DNA of 61,473 bases from an uncultured virus (IMG/VR IMGVR_UViG_3300001687_000017) (taxonomy: Duplodnaviria > Heunggongvirae > Uroviricota > Caudoviricetes): the IMG/VR virus record IMGVR_UViG_3300001687_000017, one strand, 5' to 3'. Positions 1,135 through 60,493 of this stretch are shown in pieces. The notes under the pieces were generated by a model. The model was given only the letters and a program-made list of their open reading frames with translations, did not search any database and was not told where the DNA came from. Each line of letters starts with the position of its first letter. Positions within the stretch are counted from its first letter, which is position 1. A program made the position numbers and the translations under genes.

Positions 1135-2196
1135 ATGACTGGCGATCAGCTACGCGAAACGGTCGAGCAGCTCTTTCAGCCGGTGCCGCACCGCAGCACC
1201 GCGACGGAGCTGGCTTTCGTCTGCCCGCAGCCCGGATGCACGGATTCTTCCGGCCACCGATCCGTTAACCTGAAGACCGGCCAGACCAACTGCTGGATTT
1301 GCGGGGTCGGCGGCGATTTTGTGCGCTGGGCACAGCGGCTTGGCTACGCGGTCACGGAGGAACACCGGGTTACCAAGCCGATGGAGGAGGCTGAGTTCGA
1401 CCGCATCAGCCGGACTCCGGTCAATGACTTGCCGGTGGTCACCAATATCAAACTGCCGAAGGGTTTCAGGCTTTGCCGGGACTACCCGAACAGCGTTTAC
1501 ACGGAATTCATCGCCGAAATGGCCGAGCGCAAGGGACTGAAAATCGATGACCTCATGTCCGTGAGTGTGGGCTTTACGAAGACCGATCCGTTATGGGAGC
1601 CTTACGCGATCTTCCCCAGTTTCGAGTATGACAAGGTCGTTTACTATCAAGGCCGGACCTATGTCGACGAGCCCGACCAGAAAACCAAGAAGTTCCCCAG
1701 CCGCCGGGAAGTTCCCTACAGCGCCAAGTACTGGGTCTACGGCATTGACGAACTGCGCGCCGAGCGGCCCGAGACCGTGCTGGTCATGGAATCCATTTTG
1801 AACGTGCTGACCATGCGGCGGTTCATGCGCCGTCACAAAATCAAAGGCGTCGGTACAGCCTGTGTTTTCAGCCACAGCATCAGCGAGCCGCAGGCCACCA
1901 AACTCAGGCAGCTGGAATTCCTGAAGGAGGTTGTGCTTCTATTCGACCACGACGCGACTCGTCGCGGCTGGCAGAAATCGCCCAGGCTCGGCAACAAGTT
2001 CAACCTGACGATCGCGGACATGCCGCCTGGCCCCGGCGGCGAGAAGAATGACCCGAACGACGATCCAGAGGGTGCGTGGCGGGCTTTTGAAAAGCGCGAG
2101 CACGTGAATACTGTTTTGGCTGCTGGTGCCGACATGTTCGATTTCGACCGGGAACCGCTGGACGCTGATTCGTTTACGCGCCGACGCCGTTCTTAG
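1135..2196 (+). CDS. DNA primase (T4 gp61/DnaG-like, Zn ribbon + TOPRIM)
   Basis: CPQPGC...CWIC zinc ribbon, YYQGR, TOPRIM VMES and LLFDHD, C-terminal NDPND. Confidence 0.85.
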   Translation: MTGDQLRETVEQLFQPVPHRSTATELAFVCPQPGCTDSSGHRSVNLKTGQTNCWICGVGGDFVRWAQRLGYAVTEEHRVTKPMEEAEFDRISRTPVNDLPVVTNIKLPKGFRLCRDYPNSVYTEFIAEMAERKGLKIDDLMSVSVGFTKTDPLWEPYAIFPSFEYDKVVYYQGRTYVDEPDQKTKKFPSRREVPYSAKYWVYGIDELRAERPETVLVMESILNVLTMRRFMRRHKIKGVGTACVFSHSISEPQATKLRQLEFLKEVVLLFDHDATRRGWQKSPRLGNKFNLTIADMPPGPGGEKNDPNDDPEGAWRAFEKREHVNTVLAAGADMFDFDREPLDADSFTRRRRS

Positions 2197-2200
2197 GGGC

Positions 2201-2824
2201 ATGAAGCAAATCAAAGCGCTGTTTGGCAACCGTCTTGCCGTTCAACTGGCCGAAGAGGAATACGAGGGGCTGATTGTGACCGCTCCGACCGCGATGCGGA
2301 TGCACGTGCTGGCCAAAGTCATTGCCAAGGGGCCGGAGGTCAAAGGCATTGAGGTCGGCGACATCGTGTTTTACCAGAAGGTGATTCACCCGTTCGGGAA
2401 CGCGCAAACTGACCCGTTCGGTGACGCCAAGCGCTACGACCTTAATGGAACGCCCACTTTCATCGAGATGGCCGGTGACATGATCGCCAAACTCACGGCG
2501 CAAAAGGTCAAATTGGAGCATTTTCAGGCCATCGGGGATTGGTGCCTCTGCCGTAAGAAAGTGATCGAACCGAGCAAGCTGATCGTTGTGCCCGACACCG
2601 CCGAGGCTACGAACCAGGACATCATGGTCGAGTTCCACGTGGAACAAGTTGGTGAGTCGGTAAACATGGACTTGCCGCATGGGGCGGAGCTGATTCTGGA
2701 CCGGGGACGCGCCAACCCGCTACAAATCGAGCGCGAGGACTTCGTCTACGTCCACAAGAACTTCATCCTGGGCGTTCTTGGGTATCCGACGGACACAACA
2801 GAGCCTGAAGCGACCGGTAGTTAG
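2201..2824 (+). CDS. GroES/Cpn10-like co-chaperonin with two tandem domains
   Basis: Domain 1: IKALFGNRLAV..GLIV..AKVIAKGPEVKGIEVGDIVFY; domain 2: FQAIGDWCLC..LIVVPDTAE..VEQVGE..FVYVHKNFILGVL. Confidence 0.7.
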   Translation: MKQIKALFGNRLAVQLAEEEYEGLIVTAPTAMRMHVLAKVIAKGPEVKGIEVGDIVFYQKVIHPFGNAQTDPFGDAKRYDLNGTPTFIEMAGDMIAKLTAQKVKLEHFQAIGDWCLCRKKVIEPSKLIVVPDTAEATNQDIMVEFHVEQVGESVNMDLPHGAELILDRGRANPLQIEREDFVYVHKNFILGVLGYPTDTTEPEATGS

Positions 2825-2827
2825 GAC

Positions 2828-6407: not shown

Positions 6408-7328
6408 ATGCCAAAAGTCTCTCAATTTGACGTGGTGACCTCTGTGTCACCGATCGACGATTATGTGCCAATCATCGAGCTAACCGGCACTGCCCCGGAC
6501 ACCTACCGCCAGCGCAAGGTTCTCAAGGGCAATTTGTACGGATCGGCAGTCACGTACACCAGCACGGGCAATTACTACCCGGACGACGGTGTGGGATTCA
6601 TCAACATCAATCAAGCCACCGGCTCGGACCAGATCGACGTTCACCTTCCTCTAATTCCGCCGGGTAACACGATCGCGATTTACGTTCAAAACATCACGTT
6701 GATCGGCATTGGCTACGTGCGGATTCATGCGCCAAGTGGAAAGAAGATCGACAAGGCGGGCACGACTGCGGTGGGGCGCGACAGTGTTTTGCTACCCAAG
6801 GCTTTGGGCGCTGCCTATGGGCCGGTTGTGCTGATGGCGACTCCCAACCAGGACTACGCCTATGCCTCGGCCAATGTCGGCAGTGCCGGGATGAACTTCC
6901 TGTTTTTTCATAGTAGTAGCGTCAGTTTGCCGAACGGAACGGGTTGGCAGCCCTGGCCCAATTTGGCGGCGGCAACCATTATTTGGGATGACGCCTCGAT
7001 GTGGAACGCGTCAGCGACGCCAACGCCAGGCTTCAATGTGCTCGGCGTTGACGCCTACATGCTTAACTGGAGCCTCGGCCAGAATTCTCCTTTGGTCATT
7101 CCGGCGGGCGTCTCGCTGGAAATTGGTTTGGGGTTCTGGTCGGTGAGCAGCTACCAGGGAACGGCTTATCAGCAAATCGTGGGCGACGGCGTGACCGAGA
7201 ACAAATTCTACGGTCAGACCAGGTTCACTGGGTTCACATCGGTTGCGATGCACCCTGTTTTCAGGCACAACCACACATCTCCCATTGCCGTGGGCCAGCC
7301 TTATTGGAGCATCTATCGTTTCACCTAG
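6408..7328 (+). CDS. Putative tail fibre / receptor-binding protein
   Basis: N-terminal MPKVSQF..DDYVPII resembles fibre attachment segments; beta-rich C-terminus; lies in a structural gene run. Confidence 0.5.
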   Translation: MPKVSQFDVVTSVSPIDDYVPIIELTGTAPDTYRQRKVLKGNLYGSAVTYTSTGNYYPDDGVGFININQATGSDQIDVHLPLIPPGNTIAIYVQNITLIGIGYVRIHAPSGKKIDKAGTTAVGRDSVLLPKALGAAYGPVVLMATPNQDYAYASANVGSAGMNFLFFHSSSVSLPNGTGWQPWPNLAAATIIWDDASMWNASATPTPGFNVLGVDAYMLNWSLGQNSPLVIPAGVSLEIGLGFWSVSSYQGTAYQQIVGDGVTENKFYGQTRFTGFTSVAMHPVFRHNHTSPIAVGQPYWSIYRFT

Positions 7329-8455: not shown

Positions 8456-8595
8456 ACTTTGTTCCTGTTGGTTTCTGTTGCCCGCCACTCAGCGAGCTGT
8501 TGTTCACGCTAAAAACCTGGTAACGGGCCTCGGTGCTTCCTTCGATTGAACTTCAATTGTTAAAGTTGGCGGCCCGTAACAGCGAGTGCGATCCG

Positions 8596-9633
8596 TTATT
8601 CCGCTTCAACCAGCTCCAAGCCAAGTTCCACTAGCTCCTCGGGCTCGATTTCGATGTTGCGGGTTCCAGGCGGCACGCGCTCTGTGTAGCGCCGCATCAC
8701 GTCCTCCCTGGACCAAAGTTTTTGCGCATCGGCGGCCTTGGCGACTTCGGTCGGAAGCTCGAAGCTGTAGACCGGTTCGGCGCGGCCCATCAGTGGATGA
8801 GCGTAGAACGCTTCCGCCTCGTCCGAATTGGCCAACAGGACCTGGAAGCGGTCTTCGCTTTTATCGCTCGCCTCCTTGCGCCAGGTATCGAAATCGACCA
8901 CGCGATAGCGCGGGTAGCCAGGCAGCGGGACCCAGGTGATGTCGAAGGTATCCAGGTCAAAGACGGCCACGCGCTTGTCTTCGTCGCGTTCCCCGAAGTC
9001 CTGCTGGAACGGGCTCCCCACGTAGAAGCCTGATTTGCCGACTTTCTGCGGCTTGTGGATGTGTCCCAGGAATGTGACGCTGAAAGGCTTGAGCGCTGCC
9101 GCTGGAATGCCAGTTACGGCCTGGCCGCTGTTGAGCAAGCTGCCGACGACCTGGAAATGGCCGAGCAGCACGGAATCGCGTCCGTGTACTTTGTGCCCGG
9201 TGTGCTTCAGCCAGTCGGTAAGGACACCGTCCGTCGACGGAAACGCGGCGCAGGCAATATAGAGGTCGTCAAACTCAATCAGGTCCGTGCGGTCGACGAT
9301 CCGAAACGTTTTCCTAAACATTCTGCCGACGTGGACGGTGGTGTCGCGCAGGTACTGCTCGTGGTTGCCGATCAGCTTGATGTTCAGGTCGTGGGTCGGG
9401 AACGGCTCCAGGCCCTCCATGACCGCGTCGATCGCGGGGACGGGCAAGGAACTGCGGTCATCGGTCGTGTCCCCGAGGTCCCACAGGCAGTCGCAGCGGT
9501 GTTCCTCAAAGACGGCGTGGAGGTCCCGGTAGAACTTGCGCACGCGCATCAGCTGGAGCGGCACGTTGGCATCGAGAAAGGACATTTCATGCCCGTCGGT
9601 GGCCTGGAGGTCGGTGTAAATCAGGGCTTTCAT
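8596..9633 (-). CDS. SbcD/Mre11-like recombination endonuclease subunit (T4 gp47-like)
   Basis: Metallophosphoesterase motifs YTDLQ, LGDTTD, IGNHE, LGHF, LGHIHKPQ, YVGSPFQQDFGE. Confidence 0.9.
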   Translation of the reverse strand: MKALIYTDLQATDGHEMSFLDANVPLQLMRVRKFYRDLHAVFEEHRCDCLWDLGDTTDDRSSLPVPAIDAVMEGLEPFPTHDLNIKLIGNHEQYLRDTTVHVGRMFRKTFRIVDRTDLIEFDDLYIACAAFPSTDGVLTDWLKHTGHKVHGRDSVLLGHFQVVGSLLNSGQAVTGIPAAALKPFSVTFLGHIHKPQKVGKSGFYVGSPFQQDFGERDEDKRVAVFDLDTFDITWVPLPGYPRYRVVDFDTWRKEASDKSEDRFQVLLANSDEAEAFYAHPLMGRAEPVYSFELPTEVAKAADAQKLWSREDVMRRYTERVPPGTRNIEIEPEELVELGLELVEAE

Positions 9634-9914: not shown

Positions 9915-10070
9915 ATGCGACTCTACACGCTTCAAGTCAACAACGAGACCGTGATCCAGGTCGACGCGGAGCTTCCGAGCTGGTTGCCAAGAAGGCCCCG
10001 GCTCAACCTTCGGTGGCTTAGGAACCTGCTGGCGTCGTCTCTGCGTGAGCTGCTCTTGGATGCCGCGTAG
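9915..10070 (+). CDS. Small hypothetical protein (51 aa, not in the ORF track)
   Basis: MRLYTLQVNNETVIQVDAELPSWL...LLLDAA*, read by hand; GTTCT at 9888 upstream; stop abuts the next gene's motif. Confidence 0.45.
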   Translation: MRLYTLQVNNETVIQVDAELPSWLPRRPRLNLRWLRNLLASSLRELLLDAA

Positions 10071-10077
10071 TTAAGGC

Positions 10078-11054: not shown

Positions 11055-12974
11055 ATGGCACAGACCATCGGAACCAATCTTCTGCGCTACTTGGGCATGG
11101 TCGGCTCGACTGGCGTAAACACGGGGCGGCTTGTACCTCCTGCGGCCAGCGCCATCGCCAATCAGTTCCTTTTCAGGGAATTCGAGGAATCGGGCGCGGT
11201 GGCCGACCCCGACATCTGGACCAAGTACAACAGCGTCATGAAGCGTCCGACGACCTTCGACGCGATGCTCCAGCTGTGGGAAGAAATGGCCGATTGGGAC
11301 CTGATGCACGCCGCTTTGGTCGAGGTCGTGGATGAGGCGACCGCCGTGGATATTACCAGCCCAGGCGCGATTTGGTACCAGTGCAACGACAAGGCTTTTG
11401 AGGACGAGCTGAACAGCCTGCTGGTCAAGGTGGATGCGGAGACCATCATTCGCAGCCAGGTCTGGCACGTTGCCGCCGTCGGAAACCACTTTGAGAAGAT
11501 CGAGTACGCCCCGGTGGAGGGCGTGTTGGGGCTGTCCTTCGTTCATCCGATGGACATGCGGCGGTATTGGCTGGAGCGGAACCGGAAGTGCATCGGCTTT
11601 AAGTGGGCTGGGCACCGCCCGGACAAGGAGCCGGTGTTTGTTGGGCCGGACAACCAGACGCCGGTTGAGCGCGTCGCGCTTTCCACAGGCCAAAACGTTG
11701 AGGAATTGTGGTATCCGTGGGATTTCCTGCACATGCGCCGGATGTACCGGCTGCGCATTTCCGAACACGGCGAGCCCCTCTTCGCCGAGGCCGAGGGCAT
11801 CTACAAGAAGCTACGGATCGCCATTGACCAGATGGTGGTTCACCGTGCCCAGGTTCAGCCCGACCGCTACGCCATCAACATCGACGTTCAGGAGCAGCCT
11901 CCGGCAGAGCAGATGCGCACGGTCCAGCGGTGGAAGCAGCAGCTTCGGGCGAAGCTGGCGTTCGGCCAAACTGGAAACGTAAACAGTTTGAACGCGCCCA
12001 CGGACTTCAGCAGCTACTACAACGCCTGGGCGCTGGACACCATCCTCTACGTGGCCCAGCCCAAGGGCTTCAATCACGTGGTCAACAAGCTTCAGGGCAC
12101 GCAGCAAGTCCCTGACGTTTACGATATTGAGCTGCTCACCGACCTTTTCTACAGCATCATCGGCATGCCGCGTTCCTGGTTTGGCGGCCAAAAGGAGGGC
12201 CAGACTTCACCGTCGGGCAAGGCGCTCCTGGCCCAGGACATCCGGTTCCTGCGCAAGATCAAGTCCATTCGAGCGCCCATCATCCAGGCGTACGTGTGGC
12301 TGGCCTACTTCCACGCAGTCCTCAAGGGCAAGGACATCCGGGAGCTGGACATCAAGGTCCTCATGCCGCCCATCGGGAGCTTGGAGGACCAGATGAAGCT
12401 GGAGATGCTCAAGCTCCAAACTGAAGTCCTGTCCGAGCTGGCCGACGTGATGCAGAAGTACAACCTGCCGCAGGAAGCCTGGGTCGAGACGGTTTTCAAG
12501 CGCTACATGCACCTGCCGGATGAGGTCGTGAACATGTTCATCACGGCCATGCCGCTGCCGTCGGAATCCTCCGATGTGACGGGCGGCCCGGCGGAAGGCC
12601 GCAAGCCCGCGCCCAGGGTTGGAAAGCTCATCCAGGAGGCTGAAGCCCTGGCGGACAAGAATCCCAGGCTGCGCCAACTGCTGGGTCAGATGCGCGAGGC
12701 GCAATGGGGTGTCAATGTCACGGATGTCAACCGGGCCGTGCTCCGCCGCTTCAAGACTCGCGACGATGTCGCCCTTGCGCCGCAGCTTAAGGAGAACGAT
12801 CTGATCATCAGTTCCTTTGGCAAGCACCCGCTCGAACTCAAACGCGTAAACGGAAATGGTTCGAGCCAGGGGCGTATGTCTTTGACCGAGCAGTTGCAGG
12901 AAGGCATCACCCAGGGCGAGCCGGTCGCCCAGCCTAATGGCGGTTGGCGGCAATTCTATCCTGAGAAGTTCTGA
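11055..12974 (+). CDS. Portal vertex protein (T4 gp20-like)
   Basis: ALVEVVDEA, YKKLRIAIDQMVVHRAQVQPDRYAINIDV, VNKLQG, LLAQDIRFLRKI match gp20-family segments. Confidence 0.88.
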   Translation: MAQTIGTNLLRYLGMVGSTGVNTGRLVPPAASAIANQFLFREFEESGAVADPDIWTKYNSVMKRPTTFDAMLQLWEEMADWDLMHAALVEVVDEATAVDITSPGAIWYQCNDKAFEDELNSLLVKVDAETIIRSQVWHVAAVGNHFEKIEYAPVEGVLGLSFVHPMDMRRYWLERNRKCIGFKWAGHRPDKEPVFVGPDNQTPVERVALSTGQNVEELWYPWDFLHMRRMYRLRISEHGEPLFAEAEGIYKKLRIAIDQMVVHRAQVQPDRYAINIDVQEQPPAEQMRTVQRWKQQLRAKLAFGQTGNVNSLNAPTDFSSYYNAWALDTILYVAQPKGFNHVVNKLQGTQQVPDVYDIELLTDLFYSIIGMPRSWFGGQKEGQTSPSGKALLAQDIRFLRKIKSIRAPIIQAYVWLAYFHAVLKGKDIRELDIKVLMPPIGSLEDQMKLEMLKLQTEVLSELADVMQKYNLPQEAWVETVFKRYMHLPDEVVNMFITAMPLPSESSDVTGGPAEGRKPAPRVGKLIQEAEALADKNPRLRQLLGQMREAQWGVNVTDVNRAVLRRFKTRDDVALAPQLKENDLIISSFGKHPLELKRVNGNGSSQGRMSLTEQLQEGITQGEPVAQPNGGWRQFYPEKF

Positions 12975-13723
12975 TGGCCTTGAGGATTTACGACGCGGGC
13001 GGCACGGACATTCTGGCCAACAAGCCAGCGGAGGTCACCTTTCGGATTCCGAGCGGCACCTATGCGGTGGCCGTCTATGCCGAAATCGTGGAGGATGACC
13101 TGTGTCTGCCCTACCGGCTGCTCAAGGCAACGTTGGATTGGAATGACGGAACCCAGCCCGTCTCCTTCCCCGAGACGAACTATTCGACCTCGCCTTTAAT
13201 CGTAAACACTTCTCGCCGACTTGGGTTTGGCGCGTACGCGATCACGCTCATCGTGGAGAACAACCGCCTGCCGATCCGTGATTCTGAAAAGATCACGTTC
13301 TATGTGAACGTAGAGCCGGTCCAGGCGACGACCGAGCAGACCAAACTGTTGCTCGGGCCGATCTTGCCGAAGGACACGGGATTGCCCAATCGGCAGACGT
13401 GGATGTTCGACGTGGAAAACGACATCGCGCTCCTGGCCAGCTCCGTGAAAATGCTGCTGTTGACGACCAAGGGTGAGCGGGTGATGCAGCCCACCTACGG
13501 CACGAACCTGCGGCGCATATTGTTCGAGCTGAACATCGAGAGCGTGGAGTCGATCGTGCAACAGGAAATTTCGACCGCCCTTGCCGCCTGGGAGCCTCGG
13601 GTGGTGATTCAAAGCCTTGGAATCACCCGGTACCCCAATGAGCGCAAAGTCGAGGTCCTAGCGTCCTTCCTGGCGAGAACTGCGGCCCAGCCTTTCGAGG
13701 TTCAGTTGAGCTTTGGCTCCTGA
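12974..13723 (+). CDS. Baseplate wedge protein, GPW/gp25 family, with N-terminal PKD-like extension
   Basis: VKMLLLTTKGERVMQPTYGTNL..LFE..AWEPRV. Confidence 0.85.
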   Translation: MALRIYDAGGTDILANKPAEVTFRIPSGTYAVAVYAEIVEDDLCLPYRLLKATLDWNDGTQPVSFPETNYSTSPLIVNTSRRLGFGAYAITLIVENNRLPIRDSEKITFYVNVEPVQATTEQTKLLLGPILPKDTGLPNRQTWMFDVENDIALLASSVKMLLLTTKGERVMQPTYGTNLRRILFELNIESVESIVQQEISTALAAWEPRVVIQSLGITRYPNERKVEVLASFLARTAAQPFEVQLSFGS

Positions 13724-14055: not shown

Positions 14056-15522
14056 ATGAGCGACATCCGCCCACTTGATTTGCCGACCGCTGCCGGTATG
14101 GACTTCGGCTCGGGAGACGTGCGCCATTTCAGCGAAGACGACGCCGTAAACGTGCCGGGGCTCCAAAACCCGACGCGGATGCTCGCGGAGCGCGATAATC
14201 TGATCGCGGTCAAGCTCAACGAGGTCGTCACGGAGGTCAACAACAAGGAGCAGGTTGTCCCGCTGCCCATTCCGCGCACCGGTATTCCGTCCTCGACCGA
14301 AGAGGTTGTCTTCAATTTCAAAATTCCCGACGGCTTTGAGGCCCGCATTCTGAGCGCCGCCATCGGCAGCAGCCCCGTCACGACCGACCTGACCCTCAAG
14401 ATTTACTTCAGCACCGGCTACGGCAACACCACTGGAACTGAGCTGGTCTCGACCACTGGCTCTTTCGACAGTGGCGTGGCCTTTTACAACACGGGCGAGT
14501 TCATCGTCGCCGTGGTCAACGATGGCAGCCAAAGCCTCGACGCCGTGGCCAGCGTGATCCTAACGGTCCGTCCGATGGGCTCCGAGGCCAGTCTCCTGGT
14601 CGGCAGCATCATTCGGGGTGCTCGCGGCTATACGGGCGGTAGGGGCGACAAGGGCGACAAGGGTGATCCGGGCGTTGGCGGCGCTGGCACGCCTGGCCTT
14701 TCCTGGGCCGGAACTTTCTCCTCCGCAACCAGCTACAATCCTCCCCAGGCGGTTTATTACACACGCGAGAACGGATCGACCGAAAGCTACATCGCGATTG
14801 CGGCCAATCCGTCCCCGGCCAAGCACCCGACCGACTCGGCTTATTGGGACCCGCTGGCGGCGGGTGCGGCGGCAGTGCTGACGTGGCGCGGGCCTTGGAC
14901 CTCGGGGCAAAACTACTATCTGAACGACGCGGTTAAGCACAACGGGTCCTCTTACATCTGCATTCAGACGGTCATCAACAGTACCGTCAACCCGGCCACG
15001 GATACGACAAATTTTGACCTCCTGGCCGAAGCCGGTACCGATGGCACCGACGGCACTTCAGTCTCCTTTGCCAGCCAGCCTGTTGGTTTCCCGGCGGCGG
15101 ACGGCGGCAGCCTCGCCTCCACCGCTCCGGCGGAGGGCGACTACGAGCTGATCAATGTTGGCGGTTTGCCCGGAACGATCACCGGCAAAGCCACGGAGTA
15201 CTGCATCCTGGGCGGGCCGGACGACAGCTACCCTGGCCGTTACGTGATCATGAACGGGGCCTTCCTGGCGAAGTTCGTGGGCACGCTCAGCATCACCATG
15301 CCGGTGTCCTACTACACCCAGCAGCAGTACACCCAAAGCAATGTCCAGGTGACCGCTACCGCTCAGGGCGATCAGCCCGTGCCGTTCCCTTCACCGGCAG
15401 GAACGCACGCGGGCGGGGTGCGGATCGATTGGCCGTCCTCGACGCAGGTCGACATCATTGTGACCGAGACCGTGGGAGAGCAAAAGGTCGTCGTCAATGC
15501 GACGGGATTTCAGATAGCCTGA
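14056..15522 (+). CDS. Tail fibre-like protein with collagen-like repeat and CBM5/12-like modules
   Basis: Gly-X-Y run GARGYTGGRGDKGDKGDPG; two WxGxW/F..Y..V.Y/H.GSSY repeats; GTAGTTA upstream. Confidence 0.7.
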   Translation: MSDIRPLDLPTAAGMDFGSGDVRHFSEDDAVNVPGLQNPTRMLAERDNLIAVKLNEVVTEVNNKEQVVPLPIPRTGIPSSTEEVVFNFKIPDGFEARILSAAIGSSPVTTDLTLKIYFSTGYGNTTGTELVSTTGSFDSGVAFYNTGEFIVAVVNDGSQSLDAVASVILTVRPMGSEASLLVGSIIRGARGYTGGRGDKGDKGDPGVGGAGTPGLSWAGTFSSATSYNPPQAVYYTRENGSTESYIAIAANPSPAKHPTDSAYWDPLAAGAAAVLTWRGPWTSGQNYYLNDAVKHNGSSYICIQTVINSTVNPATDTTNFDLLAEAGTDGTDGTSVSFASQPVGFPAADGGSLASTAPAEGDYELINVGGLPGTITGKATEYCILGGPDDSYPGRYVIMNGAFLAKFVGTLSITMPVSYYTQQQYTQSNVQVTATAQGDQPVPFPSPAGTHAGGVRIDWPSSTQVDIIVTETVGEQKVVVNATGFQIA

Positions 15523-16951
15523 GCAACTGTTTGACCCAGCGAACGCCCCAGGCACAGTAGCCCAGCAGTCCGCAGATGGGCCGGACCACGTTGAAGATCA
15601 CGGTTCCGGCTAGGTTGTCTTTCGGATGCACCCCATGCAAATAGGCCATGTGGTAGGTCCACGCCTTGATGGCGGGCAGCCAAAGAAGCAAAAGCCAGTT
15701 GTGTCGGTAGAGCTGCCGCGAGAGCGGGAAAGCCCACAGCGCGTAGCCGTCCTTCACTGCGCGGCTCACGTGGCGCTGGGTGTAAATCAGGTCGGCCAAA
15801 TAGATATGCTTCGGGATGTAGCCCCGGTGATAGGCCACGGTGCAGAGCCAGCTGGAGGACCGGTCCTTCATGTGGTTGTAAAACGCAGGGAAGCTAACGC
15901 TTGTGCCACCACTGTCTTCGTTGGTGATGGTTAAGCGCAAGTACCACGCGCCGCTGTCGTCACCGCCCGGTGTTCTTAGACCACATCTGAGAAAGACTTC
16001 GCCCGAAGCGTCCACAGCTTGTGCGATATAATCGTCCCCATCTGGAGGGTTATCGTCAATCTGGCACGGATTAACGTCATCGCGGTTGGTCCAGTCAATA
16101 GGCGTCAGTCCGCAGCCGTTACCAGTTTGAAAACCTCCGCGAGGCACCCGCGTCCAATTGCCGGTGCCGATCTTGTACTCCCACAGGTAGCAAAGCGGCC
16201 TGGTTCCCTTGATTCCCGTGTACGTGAACCTGACATAACTCGGCCACGGATCGCCGCCGTCCACGTGGTAATAAACGGTGTTGTTGCTCGTGTTGTAGTA
16301 GAAGGTGCCGTGGATTGGCGGCGCAAAGTAAACGCTCGGAGTAAGGCTACTGGTAAGGCGCGGATTCTGAAACGGACCTCCCAGCCGGGTATCCGCCGGG
16401 ATTTCCCAAACGAAGTTGTTGACCTGGATGCGCACGCGGTTGCGGCCCACGGTGTCCCCATTGCTGTCGAGGACACTTGAGCTGAGCGCGCTTAAGGCGA
16501 AATGGGCGTTCTGCGACGACTTGCGGGTGTGCTCCAGGAGCAGGCTGTTGGTGTTGACCGCAGCCGCGCTTTCAAGCGTCACAAATTCGGTGATGAGCGT
16601 GGTGCCGATCGGCTCGTCCGAAATTGCGTCAGGCTCGACCAGTGCGCCAGTATCCTCGGGTTGGCCCGCTAAAGCCGTGTCGAGTGCTGGGGCGTAGTAG
16701 GGCTGCCCGTTGATGACGAACCGGATGAAGTTAAAAGCGTTTACGTCCGTGTTCGACCACGTGTCGCCGTTGGAGTCCTGGTAAATGCGCAGGTCATTGC
16801 CGTAGCCATCCACATAGCCCTTGACCAAAGCAACGCCGTGGCCTTTATCGAGCGGGCCATTGATGTGGTAGGCCAAGTTCTCGGCCAGGAGCGCCAGCGC
16901 CTCGTTGAATTCGCCCAGCTCACTTTGGGTTGCCAGTTGCTCGCTGCCCAT
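15494..16951 (-). CDS. Virion-associated protein with C-terminal 'CT..Y..G...GY..WA' hydrophobic domain
   Basis: 485 aa; C-terminus SWLCTVAYHRGY..DLIY..GYALWAFPL. Confidence 0.55.
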   Translation of the reverse strand: MGSEQLATQSELGEFNEALALLAENLAYHINGPLDKGHGVALVKGYVDGYGNDLRIYQDSNGDTWSNTDVNAFNFIRFVINGQPYYAPALDTALAGQPEDTGALVEPDAISDEPIGTTLITEFVTLESAAAVNTNSLLLEHTRKSSQNAHFALSALSSSVLDSNGDTVGRNRVRIQVNNFVWEIPADTRLGGPFQNPRLTSSLTPSVYFAPPIHGTFYYNTSNNTVYYHVDGGDPWPSYVRFTYTGIKGTRPLCYLWEYKIGTGNWTRVPRGGFQTGNGCGLTPIDWTNRDDVNPCQIDDNPPDGDDYIAQAVDASGEVFLRCGLRTPGGDDSGAWYLRLTITNEDSGGTSVSFPAFYNHMKDRSSSWLCTVAYHRGYIPKHIYLADLIYTQRHVSRAVKDGYALWAFPLSRQLYRHNWLLLLWLPAIKAWTYHMAYLHGVHPKDNLAGTVIFNVVRPICGLLGYCAWGVRWVKQLLRLSEIPSH

Positions 16952-17489: not shown

Positions 17490-17921
17490 CTATTCGGCTG
17501 GCGGGGCAGGAAGCCCCTCCGGGCCACCGCGCAGAAGTTCACGCGGCGAGGGCACTTCCTCGGGGCCAATACCACCGCCTGGGCCTTCCTCGGGGCCTTC
17601 TTCCGGCGGCGCTCCGGGGCCTACCGGCTCCTCGCCGGGCTTGGGAAGCAGGTCATCGGCACTGGGCTTGACGGGCCGTCCCTCCCCGGCTTCCTTGTCC
17701 GCCATGCCGCTTTCCTCGGCATCCTCGGCGGCTTTGATGTCCTCCTCGCTCTCGCCAGGGCCGGGAATGTTGTCCAAGTACCAGGTAAGCTCGGCGTACA
17801 GCTCATCGGCCAACGGATCGGCGTGATCAGCGGCCAGGGCGTTGCGCATGGCTTCGAGCTGCCCGAAGGACATCTCGACCTGGTAGTCGTTGTAGGTGCC
17901 TTTGATCTTCTTAATTTTCAC
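17490..17921 (-). CDS. Acidic Pro/Gly/Glu-rich hypothetical protein
   Basis: Low-complexity C-terminus; GTATTTA variant motif upstream on the minus strand. Confidence 0.6.
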   Translation of the reverse strand: MKIKKIKGTYNDYQVEMSFGQLEAMRNALAADHADPLADELYAELTWYLDNIPGPGESEEDIKAAEDAEESGMADKEAGEGRPVKPSADDLLPKPGEEPVGPGAPPEEGPEEGPGGGIGPEEVPSPRELLRGGPEGLPAPPAE

Positions 17922-19222: not shown

Positions 19223-19239
19223 TTCGTTTACGAATTTGC

Positions 19240-21973: not shown

Positions 21974-22660
21974 TTATTCGATCATTTTGGTGGCTCTTTC
22001 TTCAAGCTGCTGGGCTACTGCGGCAGCTCCAGCGCTTTGCAAAAGCTGCTTGGTGTACGAAGACAAGTCTGACTTGGCCTCGTTGAGCATGTCGTCCAGA
22101 GCTTCGTTCCATTGGGACGCCATGAAGGGCAGATTCTGGCCGATTTGGCACTTGAGCATCTGGAGCGCCTTGACGAACTCCACGCGTTCCTTCTTGGGCA
22201 CTCGGTCGGCCTGGGCCATCGTTTCGGCGGTGGTGATCACTGCGTCGCAAATCTGGTCCAGCTCCTGCATCTTCCGCCGAAATTCGGCCTCCAGCTCCTG
22301 GCGCTCGTTCTTCTCGGGGCAATCGGGCTGTTTCTCAAAGTTGATGGCCTCGATCGTGCAGGGAACGCCGTCCCCGACGTTCATGTGGCTCAAGAGCTGG
22401 CCAAATTGGGCCTCGGTTAAGCTGATTTCGATGATCGGCTTGGACATCATGTACCGATCGGCGTAAAGCTGCCGGTGCTTCTCGGCGTGCCCAATGCGGA
22501 TGGTCACGCCCGCATGGTGCCGGATGGACGATCCGAAAAAGTTCTGAGGCGGCGTGCAAGTGTACCGGCTGACGCCGATCATGCCGTAGCTGGGGTGCTC
22601 CTCGATCGTGCTGTCGTGATCGCCTTTACGGATCGTCGGAGGGACTGTGGTTGTTTTCAT
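21974..22660 (-). CDS. Conserved phage hypothetical protein
   Basis: HPSYGMIGVSR..FFGSSI..EISLTEAQF..MNVGDGVPCTI; start reassigned to MKTTT. Confidence 0.7.
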   Translation of the reverse strand: MKTTTVPPTIRKGDHDSTIEEHPSYGMIGVSRYTCTPPQNFFGSSIRHHAGVTIRIGHAEKHRQLYADRYMMSKPIIEISLTEAQFGQLLSHMNVGDGVPCTIEAINFEKQPDCPEKNERQELEAEFRRKMQELDQICDAVITTAETMAQADRVPKKERVEFVKALQMLKCQIGQNLPFMASQWNEALDDMLNEAKSDLSSYTKQLLQSAGAAAVAQQLEERATKMIE

Positions 22661-22661
22661 A

Positions 22662-23428: not shown

Positions 23429-23631
23429 TGTCGGTAGAGCAAGTGGCGGATGATTTTTCCTTCGTGGTCGATGAAGCAGACGTGGCCTTCGCGCCCGCAA
23501 ATGCAGCGGATGTCCCACTGTAACGGATCGCTGTAACGGCAGGAGCCGGGCACTTCCCAGGCGCGCCCACAGGGACATGGGTGTTGGGCCATGTAATCTC
23601 GCATGCGTTGCAGCTCTTCTTCCTGGGTCAT
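23425..23631 (-). CDS. Small zinc-ribbon-like protein
   Basis: CPCG...CICG; ATGA coupling on both sides. Confidence 0.55.
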   Translation of the reverse strand: MTQEEELQRMRDYMAQHPCPCGRAWEVPGSCRYSDPLQWDIRCICGREGHVCFIDHEGKIIRHLLYRQ

Positions 23632-26677: not shown

Positions 26678-26679
26678 GG

Positions 26680-30740: not shown

Positions 30741-30744
30741 GGCA

Positions 30745-40100: not shown

Positions 40101-41368
40101 ATCAGGTAGGCGACGACAAGACGTTTTACGTGGCGGCCCACACCAGCGGTGCCCGCTACGTCTGGAAGTACTGGGACGGGGCCACGGCGGTCTCGGCGCA
40201 GAGCGCTGGCAGCAACGTCAAGCGCCTCAACCTGGGCGGCAATCCGGCGGAGGGTTTCACCGTGCCGGTGCGGTGCGAGGTCGTCGACCCGATCAAAGGC
40301 GAAACCGTTTACATCACGACGGGCCGCCTCCCGGTCAACAACCAGCCGACGCTTTACGGCAGCCCGACGGTCAGCAACAACGACGCGGCTTTCCCCTACC
40401 AGACCACCATCGCGATCCGGGCTTATGACTTGGAGGACGCCGGAATTCAGTTCCTGTGGTACTCCGGCAGCAACCCGGTTAGCGGGTTGGACACGACTTC
40501 GGCGAGCATCAGCGTTGAGGGCACCTACTACGGCACGCTGACGGGCCTGACCCGCCAAACCTACCTCAACCAGTTTAGCACGACGATTTACGGATCGGGC
40601 ACGACGATGACCTGCAAGATCATCGACGGGGACGCCGGGACGCGCAGGCTGAATTTCGACTTCCGGGGCTACGATCCGGCGGCCCCGTCCTTCTCGGTGG
40701 CCGCCACGCCCGACGCGCTGACCGCGCAAGCTACCGCCCTGACGACTCAGTTCATCGCGCCGGGCCAGGTGGCCAACTTGAGCGCCTACGCCTATGATCC
40801 GGTGCCCGGCCAGTTGGTGTTTACGTGGGACCTGAACGGCACCAACGGCTGGAGCGCCCCGGACATTCCCTTCATCTACGCCAACGACGGCACGTCGGTC
40901 GAGCAGGGCTACAAGAGCGAGTGGCAGCGGCAGTTGGAGGACGAGACGGTCGGTGGCCGAAAGCGGGTGATTGTTTGGGTGACCAATCCGACCACGAACA
41001 AAACCACCAGCACCTATTTCGACATCAACACGGCCATTAACCAGGCCCCGAGCTTCAGCAGCGTCGACATGTACGACCCCATTAGCGGGGAGCAGATCAC
41101 CAGCATCACCAAGGCGGCCTTGCCCACCAGGACCCTCGTCCGGTTTTCCGGCACGGCCAGCGATCCCAACTCGGACGTGGTGACCTACAAGTGGGATTTC
41201 ACGGTTCCGGTTTCGCCCAGCACCTACACACTTTATGGGCGCGATGCGTTCGTCGATGTCAGCGATTGGCCGTCCGGGGCCTACAGCACTTTGGGTATCG
41301 TCACGGCCTACGACCGGTTCGAGCAGGCCAGCAGCCCGGCCAACATTCCCAGTCTGACGGTGACTTAA
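40097..41368 (+). CDS. PKD/Ig-repeat virion protein
   Basis: Repeated NQ.P..A.DP..L.F/Y.W modules; coupled to the baseplate gene. Confidence 0.65.
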   Translation: MNQVGDDKTFYVAAHTSGARYVWKYWDGATAVSAQSAGSNVKRLNLGGNPAEGFTVPVRCEVVDPIKGETVYITTGRLPVNNQPTLYGSPTVSNNDAAFPYQTTIAIRAYDLEDAGIQFLWYSGSNPVSGLDTTSASISVEGTYYGTLTGLTRQTYLNQFSTTIYGSGTTMTCKIIDGDAGTRRLNFDFRGYDPAAPSFSVAATPDALTAQATALTTQFIAPGQVANLSAYAYDPVPGQLVFTWDLNGTNGWSAPDIPFIYANDGTSVEQGYKSEWQRQLEDETVGGRKRVIVWVTNPTTNKTTSTYFDINTAINQAPSFSSVDMYDPISGEQITSITKAALPTRTLVRFSGTASDPNSDVVTYKWDFTVPVSPSTYTLYGRDAFVDVSDWPSGAYSTLGIVTAYDRFEQASSPANIPSLTVT

Positions 41369-42539: not shown

Positions 42540-43085
42540 ATGCAACCTGAATCAGTCAAAGAGAAAGCAGTCGAGGATTTCCGCCGTGGTGACCCCTTAA
42601 AGGACATTGCGATCCGTTACGGCGTATCCGAAGGATCGGTCAGTCTATGGGCCAAGGCGGCGGGCTTGCGCCGCAGCCGAGGTTGTCGGCCCAAGCTGCG
42701 GCCTAGCCGCACGGACTGGGAAATCGTCGAAGCCGTGCGCTCCGTGACCAACGGCCACCCGACGCTCAAGGAGATTGGCGAGCAGTTCGGCGGCATGTCG
42801 CGGGCCGGGGTTCATCGCATCTACAAGAAATGGCGGCACTGGAAACCCAAGATGCCATTCCCGAAGGGCTCGGTGATTCGGTACGGCAAGCACGACTACG
42901 AGGTCGTCGAGCCGGGACTTTTTGCCGGGCTGGTTCGTGGAATCGATACGGGCCGGACCCGCGAGGTTGAATGGGTGACCACAACCACACAGGCGGTCCT
43001 TCTCAAGGGCCGCCGCCGTTCAAAGACTCTTTCGTATGAGGAGCCTGTTTCAAACCATCGGAAGATGGCTCGACGGCTGGAATGA
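42540..43085 (+). CDS. Double helix-turn-helix DNA-binding protein
   Basis: LKDIAIRYGVSEGSVSLW and TLKEIGEQFGGMSRAGVHRI. Confidence 0.75.
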   Translation: MQPESVKEKAVEDFRRGDPLKDIAIRYGVSEGSVSLWAKAAGLRRSRGCRPKLRPSRTDWEIVEAVRSVTNGHPTLKEIGEQFGGMSRAGVHRIYKKWRHWKPKMPFPKGSVIRYGKHDYEVVEPGLFAGLVRGIDTGRTREVEWVTTTTQAVLLKGRRRSKTLSYEEPVSNHRKMARRLE

Positions 43086-49976: not shown

Positions 49977-50006
49977 AAATAACGGATCGCCAAATAACGG
50001 ATCGCC
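49977..50006. repeat. Tandem 15-bp repeat AAATAACGGATCGCC x2
   Basis: Read directly; ends 1 nt before ATG 50008. Confidence 0.95.
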
Positions 50007-50007
50007 C

Positions 50008-50823
50008 ATGAAGGAACCAAGAAACGCTGCTGACCCCAAAGCGCTCCAGCGGTTTGTCGATAGGGTGCGCAGGCAAGCTCACCGCCAGTTCGGCGAGGAC
50101 ATCTTCGTTGATGTTTACGACAGCGCCGTGGCCCAGCGGCTTCAGCTGCTGGCAGTGCCCCACTACCATCTTTGCGAAACCAACGAGGAATTGCTGCGCG
50201 GAGCGGAGCTGGCGATTGCCAACTTGAGGCACGTCTGCGACTACACTGACGCGTGGCTGCGGCATATTGAGTTGGCGCACCGCGACGACCGCGAAATGCG
50301 CGAGCTGGAGGCGCTGGCCAAAAAGCTGTGGCCAGGATTCCCCGTTGCTTTTTCGACAAGCTACTCGGGTTTTGACCGGCGCTCGGACGAGGTCATTCGG
50401 CGGCCCAAGCAGCTTGCAAGCTTGCGCACGGACAGTGATTCGCGTGCTGGGCTTCACAAAGAGCGCCTGGCCTACCTTCATCTGGCGGCTAAGGAAATGG
50501 CCAAGCCTACGTGGCGGCGCGGCATCACGATCAAGGAAATCCTGGTCACGATGACGAGCTATTCCATGAGCGTGTACGCCAGGACCAACATCACGCAGGA
50601 AGAGCTGCGGCGTGCGGCGGCGTACCGGGAAACGATGCGTGACGCCGACAAGGCGGTGGCTGAATGGGCAGCGGCGCACGGCCTTGAAAAAGAAGGTATT
50701 TCCCGTCGAGAGCTGACGCGAATGATTGAGTTCTTTGCTAAGCAGACGCTGAAGGCTTACGCCAAGAAGCGGCGATCCGTAACACGGCGATCCGTAACAC
50801 GGCGATCCGTAAAACGAGGATAG
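50008..50823 (+). CDS. Uncharacterised basic, helical protein bracketed by CGATCCGTWA arrays
   Basis: 271-aa ORF, Arg-rich; no family recognised. Confidence 0.7.
   Translation: MKEPRNAADPKALQRFVDRVRRQAHRQFGEDIFVDVYDSAVAQRLQLLAVPHYHLCETNEELLRGAELAIANLRHVCDYTDAWLRHIELAHRDDREMRELEALAKKLWPGFPVAFSTSYSGFDRRSDEVIRRPKQLASLRTDSDSRAGLHKERLAYLHLAAKEMAKPTWRRGITIKEILVTMTSYSMSVYARTNITQEELRRAAAYRETMRDADKAVAEWAAAHGLEKEGISRRELTRMIEFFAKQTLKAYAKKRRSVTRRSVTRRSVKRG
50770..50812. repeat. Tandem 15-bp repeat CGGCGATCCGTAACA x3 (third copy partial)
   Basis: Read directly; encodes RRSVT repeats; inverted relative to the 49977 array. Confidence 0.95.
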
Positions 50824-51105: not shown

Positions 51106-51206
51106 AATGAGCAAAGCAACGATTTGGGGAGCCGCCCAACGGGTGACGACTGGAGGCGCTGAGTGGCGTCTTCGGGCTCCCCTTAACATCCGATCCGTAA
51201 TACCAC

Positions 51207-56169: not shown

Positions 56170-56539
56170 GGAGAAGGTCCGCACCGCCGAGGCCAGCCTG
56201 ATTAGGTTGAGCCGGACCCGCCGTATTGGCTTTGTGATCTTCGGTTTTGGCGTGCCCATGCAGTTTCTTCAGGTGGCGGCGTGGGCGCTCTCCTTGAGCC
56301 TGGGGTTCGACTGGCTGGAGGTCATTCCGCTGGTGATCAACACGGTCATCCTGTTTTGGTGGGCGCTTCTAGCACGCAACAACTACCTGGAGTGGAAAGA
56401 GGTTGAGGCGATCCGTAAGCTTTGGGCGCAGTTGAAGCAGCCCCTGCCGCACGGCTACTTGCTCCATGTTCAGGACCAGATCGAGGCGTTTTGCGAGCGC
56501 GTGGCCAAACGGCCATCTCTGTGGACGGGCCGTTGTTAG
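56156..56539 (+). CDS. Two-TM membrane protein
   Basis: Two hydrophobic helices. Confidence 0.55.
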   Translation: MKTHEEKVRTAEASLIRLSRTRRIGFVIFGFGVPMQFLQVAAWALSLSLGFDWLEVIPLVINTVILFWWALLARNNYLEWKEVEAIRKLWAQLKQPLPHGYLLHVQDQIEAFCERVAKRPSLWTGRC

Positions 56540-56546
56540 TTAAAGC

Positions 56547-56981: not shown

Positions 56982-57291
56982 TCAAGGACCATGCCTGTCG
57001 AGCGCTTGCCGAGCCGCTGACTGTGTGGGTGCCGCTCCGGCTTCCTCAAGGTCCGATCGGAACAGCTCTTTCCGCGCAGTTGATCGGGCTTGCCGAACAA
57101 GGCATACCCATTTCCACTGGCGGGCGCATCGCGCATCCGCTGTTCCAGTGTGACTTCGACTTAGAGCATAGGCGCGTGCTCGTGCCGAAATTACGGATCG
57201 GCGAAATAGTTAACGTTTCTGTGCGGTGGGGCATTGGTCGTGACGGCGAGCCCGAGGTTCTCGGCATGGACCTTTGCCGTTCTTCAAAGTC

Positions 57292-57753: not shown

Positions 57754-58529
57754 TCGAACATGTGGTCCAGTACAGTGGTGGGGCCTGCTCGTTTTGGGCG
57801 GCCAAACGGGTGATTGACCGTTACGGATCGGACACGGTGGTCCTGCTCTTCGCCGACACGAAGATGGAGGACGAGGACCTCTACCGGTTCCTGGACGAGA
57901 CCAGCCAGTTCCTGCGCGTGCCCATCACCAAAATCGAGGACGGGCGGACCCCGTGGCAGGTGTTCTTCGACGAGCGTTTCCTGGGCAATACCCGCGTCGA
58001 TCCGTGCTCCAAGATTCTCAAGCGGGAGCTGCTTTGGAAGTGGATGACTGAGCACGCCCCGAAGGCCACGGTCCACGTGGGTCTGGATTGGACCGAGGAC
58101 CATCGCCTGGAGCGCCTGCGCACTTATCGGCCTGAATTCAAGATTGAAGCACCGATGATGTGGGACCCGCTGGTGGACAAGCCAGACATGCTCATCGAGC
58201 TGAAGAAGCTTGGGTTCGAGCTGCCTCGGCTCTACAAGCTCGGGTTCGCCCACAATAACTGCGGCGGCTTTTGCATCAAGTCAGGCCAGGCGCAGTTTCG
58301 TTTACTGCTCACCGAAATGCCCGAGCGCTACGCGTTCCACGAGGAACAGGAGCGCAAGCTGCGGGCCTTCCTGGACAAGGACGTGGCCGTGCTGCGGGAC
58401 CGGCGCGGTGGAAAAACCAGGCCGATGACGCTTGAAGAATTTCGTAAACGCCTTCAAGCTGACGGTGATGAGCCCTCTGACTGGTATGCAAGGGACGAAT
58501 TTGGAGGTTGTGGTTGCGCCATAGACTGA
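57750..58529 (+). CDS. PP-loop (PAPS reductase-like) protein with Cys clusters
   Basis: VVQYSGGACS, FADT..EDEDLYRFL, HNNCGGFC, GGCGC. Confidence 0.75.
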   Translation: MIEHVVQYSGGACSFWAAKRVIDRYGSDTVVLLFADTKMEDEDLYRFLDETSQFLRVPITKIEDGRTPWQVFFDERFLGNTRVDPCSKILKRELLWKWMTEHAPKATVHVGLDWTEDHRLERLRTYRPEFKIEAPMMWDPLVDKPDMLIELKKLGFELPRLYKLGFAHNNCGGFCIKSGQAQFRLLLTEMPERYAFHEEQERKLRAFLDKDVAVLRDRRGGKTRPMTLEEFRKRLQADGDEPSDWYARDEFGGCGCAID

Positions 58530-59093: not shown

Positions 59094-59113
59094 CCTAACC
59101 TAGAGGATTACCT

Positions 59114-59746: not shown

Positions 59747-60035
59747 CCCGCCCGGACCTGATGCCGGTGCGCCCCGCCGTTTTCATCAGGCGGCGGGGAC
59801 GGCCACTTTCAAACCGAGGCGCAGGAGCATGATTCGGGTCCTGCGCGAGAAATGGCCGCAGCTGACCTGGACGGCGCACCGGGTCGGTTTCGGATCGTGG
59901 CTCTACGAAGCCTCCAACGGCTGGATGGGCTGGTGGACCGCGTCGATGGATGAGGACGCCGATCCGTTGTGGCACCGCTTCTACGTTTACAAGTCCTCGA
60001 CCAACGAACCGCCCGAGCAAGTTTTCCTATCGTGA
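59739..60035 (+). CDS. Trp-rich hypothetical protein
   Basis: ORF in the packed plus-strand run. Confidence 0.5.
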   Translation: MSSPPGPDAGAPRRFHQAAGTATFKPRRRSMIRVLREKWPQLTWTAHRVGFGSWLYEASNGWMGWWTASMDEDADPLWHRFYVYKSSTNEPPEQVFLS

Positions 60036-60047
60036 TATAGTTTGGTC

Positions 60048-60278
60048 ATGAACTACGCGAGCGCCTACGAGCTGGTGATGGCCGGGTTTGTCCGGCACCA
60101 CCGGAGGAAACCAACACAAATGGAGGCCAGGATGCTGATGAAGTGCCTCAAGTCGCGCCAGTTTCACCAGCACCTGGAGCAGGTCACCGCAGCCCATCCT
60201 GGCGCTGAATACGTCGTGACTTTCGACGGTGAATTCCTTTCCATCACGCCCACGGACGAGCAGGCTTTCTCCGCATGA
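60048..60278 (+). CDS. Hypothetical protein
   Basis: ATGA coupling to the next gene. Confidence 0.5.
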   Translation: MNYASAYELVMAGFVRHHRRKPTQMEARMLMKCLKSRQFHQHLEQVTAAHPGAEYVVTFDGEFLSITPTDEQAFSA

Positions 60279-60493
60279 GCCAGGTATTCTGGAAATCCTC
60301 GATGGGTGAGTGGCACTGTTACGGATCGGACGGTTGGAGCCTGTGCGGCTTCTTTCAGCTCAAAGCGCAGCGCAAAGGGCCGCAGAAGGAGCCAAAGTTC
60401 CAGGAAGCCTTTGACCGCATTGAAGCCTGCCAGCGCTGCTGGAACGAATACCAGCGAATAAAGGCTTCCACCAATGGCGGATCACGTTCTTGA
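60275..60493 (+). CDS. Small Cys/His protein
   Basis: WHC..SLCG..CQRC. Confidence 0.5.
   Translation: MSQVFWKSSMGEWHCYGSDGWSLCGFFQLKAQRKGPQKEPKFQEAFDRIEACQRCWNEYQRIKASTNGGSRS

Follow-up and report, generated by a model that had tools for sequence, protein, structure and literature searches.

The stretch of DNA analysed here (the window, 61,473 nt) comes from an uncultured virus of the Caudoviricetes (IMG/VR IMGVR_UViG_3300001687_000017) and carries many dispersed copies of an asymmetric word, CGATCCGTWA, with the core CGATCCGT. The window corresponds to 61 kb inside the 202,975-bp IMG/VR record G001 (positions 57,026-118,493), to which it is 99.98% identical with 9 mismatches and one gap. 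The completeness of G001 was given as 89% by CheckV. Scans against Pfam and PHROG assigned to the window a T4-type portal, a gp25-like baseplate wedge and tail-fibre proteins, and also the replication and repair genes for a DnaG-type primase, helicases and an SbcD-like nuclease. The rest of G001 encodes a tubulin/FtsZ-family protein, a prohead protease, a tail sheath, a RecA-like protein, a DnaB-like helicase, an NAD-dependent ligase, an N6/N4 DNA methylase and a sigma-54 enhancer-binding protein. Neither a tRNA scan nor a search for Rfam families gave a match in the window. Judged by this gene content, the genome is that of a T4-like jumbo phage of 203 kb and not a bacterial chromosome.

A first-pass annotation of the window, made from the letters alone, had listed 19 copies of the word, and each of them matches CGATCCGTWA exactly at the listed coordinate and strand. 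The number expected from 100 dinucleotide-preserving shuffles was 0.17, and none of the shuffles reached 19; an order-3 Markov model gave 0.19. The roughly 100-fold excess claimed in the annotation therefore persists under both null models, although its assumed GC content of about 62% has to be corrected to about 0.60 (0.59-0.63 per 5-kb bin). Under the Markov model the two 10-mers covered by the pattern were the most enriched 10-mers of the window (8 versus 0.05 and 11 versus 0.14 expected). The core was present 30 times against 2.37 expected, with 7 as the highest value in any shuffle. In the following, a match to CGATCCGTWA is called a full copy, and CGATCCGT without the full 10-mer is called core-only. 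The window has 11 core-only copies, where the annotation had estimated about ten and named seven of them. One-letter variants at positions 1-8 were nearly absent from the window.

The annotation had also described the word as genome-wide, and this applies to the whole 203-kb record. G001 contains 39 full copies, 20 forward and 19 reverse, at a density of about one per 5.2 kb, compared to about 0.63 expected under the order-3 Markov model. They range from 27.8 kb to 202.8 kb of the record, and the reversed word, used as a control, had 0 matches. For the core the count is 73, with 10.2 expected. Words that differ from it by one letter at positions 1-7 were not enriched in G001 (147 in total, 188 expected), while position 8 was looser, with C 30, G 26 and A 17 times against 11-15 expected for each. 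Position -2 is G in 39 of the 73 cores, position -1 is G or C in 64 of 73, and the core is followed by AA 29 times and by TA 10 times. No further conserved positions were seen within 60 nt on either side of the G001 copies, so the word does not belong to a longer promoter or mobile element. The consensus is G-S-CGATCCGT-W-A, about 10-12 bp long and asymmetric: it contains GATC, is not its own reverse complement, and both orientations are present as separate copies. With its sharp core and bare flanks, the word is a real, sharply defined and self-contained site.

To see how far protein sequence accounts for the copies, synonymous codons were swapped among positions with the same amino acid, which kept all proteins and the overall codon usage. 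In 1000 such shuffles the window had on average 6.13 and at most 9 copies, and 6 of these lie in sequence that was not shuffled. Thus, 13 coding copies were observed against about 0.13 after shuffling. Coding sequence was defined for these shuffles by our own crude ORF and GC3 calls and not by a gene finder. The enrichment survives the codon-aware null under which the annotation had considered that it might vanish, and its statement that proteins do not explain the word was borne out; the window copies are spread over different genes, frames and orientations. Rare codons are used within the copies. Six of the 121 TTA codons of G001 (TTA makes up 2.3% of the Leu codons) lie inside copies, and the copies also include 5 GTA, 5 GGA and 7 CGA codons.

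One relative, G002, was available for comparison. It is a 31,826-bp contig, syntenic with 34.6-66.6 kb of G001 and 72% identical at the DNA level over aligned columns; its proteins are mostly 45-87% identical to those of G001. G002 has 8 full copies and 12 cores in 31.8 kb, a density like that of G001. Only 2 of the 7 alignable core sites in each genome were kept in place. The first is the copy at 1258 in the primase gene, in which the W position changed from T to A by a synonymous GTT to GTA exchange. The second is the intergenic copy after the SbcD-like gene, which is conserved amid poorly conserved flanks and is doubled in G002 with a spacing of 19 bp. At several sites that were not conserved the amino acids are identical and codon choice alone makes the word, as in F-Y-G-S, encoded by TTT TAC GGA TCG in one and TTC TAT GGC TCC in the other genome; N-G-S, S-R-I-G, G-D-P and T-D-R are further examples. 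The conservation in close relatives that the annotation had looked to therefore applies to the word and its density, not to most of its positions. As far as these two genomes tell, the word and its density are maintained and shared with one relative while most positions turn over. The result of the codon shuffle, the synonymous gain and loss of copies and the rare codons inside them together show that the word is kept by selection on the DNA itself and is not a by-product of the proteins.

More distant relatives were collected by their Mini-A and portal proteins. Among these 110 loci, 8 had a single copy and 102 had none. Five large distant records (about 60% identity of the portal, about 40% over many proteins) had 2 copies in 680 kb. 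No further members of the G001/G002 lineage were found, and the word appears to be restricted to this lineage. The Mini-A topoisomerase-like gene (Topo VI-A/Spo11-like) is located at 24149-25045 on the minus strand of the window (phrog_6247, E = 1e-118); the Mini-A family is known, and 248 stretches of relatives were confirmed in IMG/VR.

All statistics on gene position are limited by our gene calls, which are crude (longest ORFs, i.e., open reading frames, ranked by the excess of GC at third codon positions). Of the 39 full copies in G001, 19 are sense, 12 antisense and 8 outside gene calls. After arrays were collapsed to give 35 full-copy cases, 18 lay no more than 140 nt from a gene start (11.0 expected, P = 0.005), and 7 touched intergenic DNA (P = 0.017), which makes up 6.6% of the genome. 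The 34 core-only copies did not show these trends, with 8 near gene starts and 1 intergenic. Several sense copies following a start codon were found 42, 58, 76, 100, 109, 123, 123 and 127 nt into the gene, all within 42-130 nt, and three upstream full copies (G001 37650, 65614 and 114213) are on the strand opposite to the nearest gene. Close pairs (70 nt or less) are mostly direct repeats (6 of 7, with spacings of 11, 15, 15, 15, 16 and 66 bp); the remaining pair is divergent with 39 bp. Copies are unevenly spread over G001: the first 57 kb have only 4, one gap measures 27.8 kb, and the densest region has 11 copies in 12 kb of small genes (G001 107-119 kb, window 50-61 kb). Runs of orientation were not significant (runs test, P = 0.15 for full copies and 0.09 for cores).

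In the first 9 kb of the window three full copies are present on the plus strand. The copies at 1258..1267 and 1584..1593 (both CGATCCGTTA) lie in the primase-like gene 1135-2196; the former is sense, 123 nt into the gene, the latter includes an in-frame TTA Leu codon and is absent at the aligned place of G002, where 3 of 8 core letters match. The copy at 8589..8598 is intergenic, with a TTA that is complementary to the stop codon of the minus-strand SbcD-like gene (8596-9633). Five copies on the minus strand follow. Sense copies are found at 22626..22635 (CGATCCGTAA; gene 21974-22963), at 23521..23530 (123 nt into gene 23024-23653, which encodes a CxxCxxCC domain) and at 25823..25832 (gene 25487-26863, again with an in-frame TTA codon), antisense copies at 31461..31470 (gene 30631-31608) and 40588..40597 (gene 40097-41368).

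Further downstream, the plus-strand copy at 42610..42619 is sense within the 5' part of a gene for a protein with two helix-turn-helix (HTH) units and encodes A-I-R-Y of the first HTH. Two arrays bracket ORF 50008-50823. The first, at 49980..50004 on the minus strand, consists of two full copies with a spacing of 15 bp and ends 3 nt before the ATG of this ORF. The second, at 50773..50812 on the plus strand, has three full copies in 15-bp units (GGCGATCCGTAACAC) at the 3' end of the ORF and lies 15-54 nt before the ATG of the next gene. Two more plus-strand copies precede genes: the one at 51191..51200 is intergenic, 7 nt before the ATG of gene 51207-51671, and the one at 56409..56418 is outside gene calls, 138 nt before gene 56547-56981, possibly inside the small ORF 56111-56539. 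The last three full copies are on the minus strand. That at 57191..57200 is outside gene calls, about 80 nt before gene 57274-57753, that at 57821..57830 is antisense, about 70 nt into the PAPS-reductase-like gene 57750-58529, and that at 60319..60328 is antisense, about 45 nt into the small ORF 60275-60493. Core-only copies were found on the minus strand at 6538..6545 (CGATCCGT), 11813..11820 (in the portal gene), 14771..14778, 16246..16253, 17813..17820, 28037..28044, 28223..28230 and 39265..39272, and on the plus strand at 13272..13279, 57998..58005 and 59960..59967.

Apart from the protein with two HTH units, the window yielded no clear sequence-specific DNA-binding protein. The gene for this two-HTH protein (42540..43085, plus strand) encodes 181 aa from the Met at 42540, while the longest ORF starts at 42483 and has 200 aa. 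In the 200-aa ORF, an HTH_28/HTH_23 domain is at 26-59 and a sigma-70 region-4-like HTH at 79-116. The structure model (pLDDT, the predicted local distance difference test, 78) has two three-helix units and a small beta domain. Foldseek matches were weak (E 0.01-0.1) and included binders with a bipartite HTH arrangement (paired domains, SETMAR, DUX4, IstA). Among 5.8 billion proteins only 2 homologues were found, with 54-60% identity and identical recognition-helix segments; G006 and G007, two distant relatives of the phage, had none, and no homologous loci were present in viral contigs. The protein is thus as lineage-restricted as the word, and its gene carries a copy of the word itself; the gene lies outside the region covered by G002. 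Together these features make the two-HTH protein a circumstantial candidate for the reader of the word. No phage repressor was identified in the scanned G001 proteins. As further observations on the gene content, ORF 55108-56169 gave a weak PHROG match to integrases (E = 0.0009), with no clear integrase identified, and the tubulin/FtsZ-family gene (PhuZ- or TubZ-like; G001 1614-2924, minus strand) has a 92-aa ORF upstream on the same strand.

ORF 50008-50823 (plus strand, 271 aa), bracketed by the two arrays and weighed as a possible reader of the word or initiator, is an orphan. Among 1.84 billion representative proteins it matched itself and one homologue with 27% identity. Neither Pfam nor PHROG assigned it to a family, viral contigs had no relatives and the atlas gave no lead, and its AlphaFold model (pLDDT 55) had no fold match. 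It is not paralogous to another ORF of 271 aa that lies beside a second array. Its C-terminus (window 50761-50823) has the pentapeptide RRSVT three times, the last 15 codons being the 15-bp array. A database variant of 266 aa (P0001) has 2 RRSVT units instead of 3, which indicates that the array varies in copy number.

We also searched for the word outside the phage family. It was counted in 311 bacterial genomes (301 Planctomycetota, then four more Planctomycetota and six from other phyla or classes; overall 306 were Planctomycetota and 5 came from other phyla). None showed Chi-like abundance; the maximum was 64 copies, mostly in arrays, and the host of the phage is not identified. The other genomes were near the roughly 20 copies expected from composition (10-47 in the ten additional genomes), and none of the 311 came near the phage density of about one copy per 5 kb. 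Pairs of copies no more than 30 nt apart were found in at least 120 stretches among 185,579 species genomes, from many phyla and mostly as short-period tandem repeats or pairs; we estimate that chance pairs and microsatellites would produce about this number. The genome with 64 copies (G011, a metagenome-assembled genome (MAG) of the Planctomycetota) was treated as a probable coincidence: most of its copies are in arrays of a 35-bp hairpin unit, and copies outside arrays are no more frequent than chance predicts. This G+C-rich unit (29-43 bp, mostly 35 bp) forms at least 12 intergenic arrays and carries GCGATCCGTAAC in the loop (e.g., L177 2948-3265) and look like a genome-specific family resembling repetitive extragenic palindromic (REP) sequences that happens to hold the word.

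A MAG of the Verrucomicrobiae (G318) contains two non-coding elements of about 340 bp, 75-79% identical to each other, which carry the word with unrelated flanks. In L301 5430-6040 and L302 5430-5760, one element has 3 copies with 19-bp spacing and the other 5 in about 470 bp. A D5_N/DUF5906 primase-helicase gene precedes one of the loci by about 340 bp, with IS66 genes and a DruA-like gene nearby, and the element may be the origin of a mobile element. These arrays show that the word is able to act as an iteron-like unit. No G001 protein matched the G318 loci, so the shared word does not link the element to the phage. The IMG/VR contigs G003 and G004, which have tandem copies, share no proteins with the phage and were rejected. 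A literature search for the word itself returned no relevant title or abstract among the matches listed.

Some other words of the phage family were seen in the course of the analysis. Another word, CGTTTACG, is also dispersed and often has TT or ATT before it. G001 has 96 copies where about 12 are expected (51 sense, 31 antisense and 14 intergenic), for example at window 19225-19232 (G001 76250-76257), and G002 has 21. The distant relatives G006 and G007 have TGTTTACA or TTGTTTAC instead, with 30 and 54 copies, about 37-40% of them intergenic. CGTAA is common to CGTTTACG and the 10-mer, and CGTTTACG may represent a site of the whole family, with its outer letters altered in this lineage. TAGTTAA(G/A)G is found 4-15 nt before a called start in 12 of its 18 G001 copies (e.g., window 10068-10074, 14046-14052 and 56537-56543), and four more copies have an ATG 4-6 nt downstream that is not among our called starts; a shared stop-plus-ribosome-site or a late-gene start signal is the probable explanation. 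GGATCC is absent from G001, G002, G006 and G007, with expectations of about 60 (G001), about 37-40 (G006) and 69-100 (G007), and many other 6-bp palindromes are likewise missing from these four phages, which suggests strong avoidance of the restriction type across the family. The palindrome GAGTACTC occurs at 6 places in G001 (about 0.4 expected), all intragenic, including window 5405-5412, 28987-28994 and 44334-44341 (G001 62430, 86012 and 101359). A 20-nt stretch ending in the core, GCCGAGACACCGCGATCCGT, is present twice, 1.2 kb apart, at G001 136270-136290 and 137465-137500, and encodes AAETPRSV in two different genes, as a local duplication or a shared peptide.

We tentatively favor the view, at somewhat less than an even chance, that the copies are dispersed binding sites of a phage-encoded DNA-binding protein. 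The word would be a recognition site on the DNA of this jumbo-phage lineage, and a sequence-specific protein would bind it, one molecule per copy. Intergenic copies and copies at gene starts, the arrays included, would act as operators or iterons for neighbouring genes or for a local DNA transaction, whereas the intragenic copies would be extra binding sites that act as roadblocks, as a sink or as nucleation points. A single chain with two DNA-binding units, such as the two-HTH protein, would fit an asymmetric 10-12-bp site. This reading draws on the sharp asymmetric site and its selection at the DNA level, the arrays, the preference of full copies for intergenic positions and gene starts, the one intergenic copy kept in G002 and the restriction to one lineage. 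It is further supported by the precedent of the mycobacteriophage repressors described below and by the iteron-like arrays of the same word in G318. That a protein reads the word, that this reader is encoded by the phage, that it is the two-HTH protein and what its binding would do are inferred steps.

Several results weigh against binding sites of this kind. The link of the two-HTH protein to the word is circumstantial, and outside the window the scan covered G001 proteins of at least 90 aa, except for six genes. In 132 other loci with tandem copies, no phage proteins recurred beside the copies, HTH homologues included. With 31 of 39 copies (about 80%) inside genes and 19 sense against 12 antisense, there is no fixed orientation to transcription as there is for the stoperators of mycobacteriophages; most copies are intragenic and turn over as expected for a Chi signal, which depends on number, and the fit to stoperators is therefore imperfect. 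The low share of sites kept in G002 likewise fits a density-dependent signal better than promoter-tied operators. The preference for gene starts and intergenic DNA depends on our crude gene calls, and the association with divergent gene junctions was marginal (5 of 35 nearby, 2.1 expected, P = 0.057). Sigma-70-like promoters were not enriched near the copies, and in window 49.4-61.5 kb both these promoters and terminators were at shuffle level. Sigma-54 promoters were considered as targets of the phage enhancer-binding protein and rejected, as the 9 loose matches in 203 kb, one of them 258 nt from a copy, formed no pattern. The gene for this protein (G001 147762-148853, minus strand; Sigma54_activat, E = 6e-62, and HTH_8) lacks an N-terminal receiver domain.

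It is unlikely, but deserves serious weight, that the word is a polar, Chi-like signal read by a translocating enzyme, either a host nuclease of the RecBCD/AddAB type or a recombination or packaging motor of the phage. The many copies on both strands would then protect or mark a circularly permuted linear genome. The sharpness of the exact word, the equal use of both strands (20 versus 19) at one copy per 5.2 kb, and the density kept in G002 while positions turn over and copies are made by synonymous and rare codons are what such a signal would show. The 8-bp core alone is also enriched about 3.5-fold at random places, direct tandem arrays would increase the chance of recognition, and the phage has a T4-like recombination set with RecA-like and SbcD-like proteins and helicases. 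However, known Chi sites have 5-8 nt and not 10-12, the copies are unevenly spread (only 4 in the first 57 kb but 11 in one region of 12 kb, and a gap of 27.8 kb), full copies lean to intergenic DNA and gene starts, and the orientation runs (P = 0.15 and 0.09) were not significant. Each of the 311 bacterial genomes had at most 64 copies, in a sample that is small and with the host not identified.

It is likewise doubtful, though not far-fetched, that the word marks the phage chromosome as "self", being renewed by selection at synonymous sites and read by a factor that tells phage from host DNA. Such a mark would be used for nuclease protection, recombination-dependent replication or packaging. 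The word holds about 19-20 bits of information, by our own arithmetic about 6 bits more than needed for 39 sites in 203 kb and about what is needed for picking sites in a cell with a host genome of several Mb.

We regard it as quite improbable that the word is a by-product of biased repair or of a methylation-linked mutational drive, with no selection by the phage for a function of the word. For the HIP1 palindrome of cyanobacteria, a drive of this type has reportedly been proposed. In favour of it are the GATC and CGATC within the word, the N6/N4 DNA methylase encoded by the phage, the enrichment of core-only copies at random places, and the excess, at least about 2-fold, of CGATCCG with any letter after it. 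The phage family is also under other strong word pressures, as seen for GGATCC (0 versus about 60 expected). On the other hand, an asymmetric word of 10-12 bp is longer than methylase sites, there is no specific depletion of its transition neighbours, the placement of full copies is non-random and includes arrays, and one intergenic copy is conserved within diverged flanks. An action in RNA near the 5' ends of messages, whether as a small-RNA seed or as the target of a translational repressor or a nuclease, is very improbable: several sense copies do lie 42-130 nt after start codons and others just before starts, but 12 of the 31 intragenic copies are antisense, the three upstream full copies named above are opposite in strand to the nearest gene, and the window has neither an Rfam match nor conserved flanks able to form structure. 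The probability that these explanations leave over goes to something we did not consider.

Most of what is known about jumbo phages comes from metagenomes, and little of it concerns their regulation. A word that imposes rare codons by its selection and arises at new places in a related genome points to an undiscovered factor reading the DNA of this phage. If the reader is identified, it could be a new global regulator of a T4-like jumbo phage; if the word is a self mark, it would be a phage-borne functional counterpart of Chi or of uptake sequences. The case allows a clean test between sites that matter by place and sites that matter by number.

The first-pass annotation had compared the word to matS, Chi or uptake sequences. 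A DNA-level signal was supported by our data, but the likeness to matS was not. The matS site is a palindromic 13-mer of one bacterial macrodomain, whereas the word is non-palindromic, resides on a phage genome and extends from 27.8 to 202.8 kb instead of being confined to one region. It also differs from palindromic iterated words of the HIP1 type, as CGATCCGTWA is not a palindrome. Chi, the FtsK-orienting polar sequences (KOPS) and the DNA uptake sequences or uptake signal sequences (DUS/USS) are words of bacterial chromosomes that are read by host machines. Like the word, they are exact, short, asymmetric and over-represented, are accommodated in genes by synonymous codons, and keep their density as positions change. 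Unlike them, the word is on a phage, unevenly spread and present in arrays. DUS/USS also form close inverted pairs at terminators, while 6 of 7 close pairs here are direct and one is divergent at 39 bp, and a density of about one copy per kb, as for DUS/USS in a competent bacterium, was not found in the 311 genomes searched.

The short arrays of direct repeats flanking one gene resemble the iterons of plasmid, phage and satellite origins. Iterons have 17-22 bp and are usually confined to the origin, whereas here the 203 kb contain at least 30 copies that stand alone, and no initiator fold is recognisable in the bracketed ORF 50008-50823. The operators of the P1 C1 repressor are asymmetric 17-bp sites dispersed over the genome, and the word is like them in being an asymmetric, dispersed, single or paired site that would belong to one phage regulator. 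It is unlike them in its length of 10-12 bp and its mostly intragenic position, since the C1 sites are associated with promoters.

The stoperators and operators of Cluster A mycobacteriophages, known from the L5, Bxb1 and TipsytheTRex repressors, are the closest precedent. These repressors are monomers with two DNA-binding domains that bind asymmetric sites, many per genome (PMC9283540; PMC6550527), and stoperators are predominantly in one orientation relative to transcription (PMC6550527). In contrast, the copies described here are mixed in orientation (19 sense, 12 antisense), mostly intragenic (31 of 39) and mostly not kept in the relative, and they belong to a T4-like jumbo phage without an identified repressor or clear integrase. 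The stoperator reader is a monomer with two DNA-binding domains, and its counterpart here would be the two-HTH protein, as a candidate only. What the two systems share is a short asymmetric site, present in tens of copies across a phage genome and with a lineage-specific consensus.

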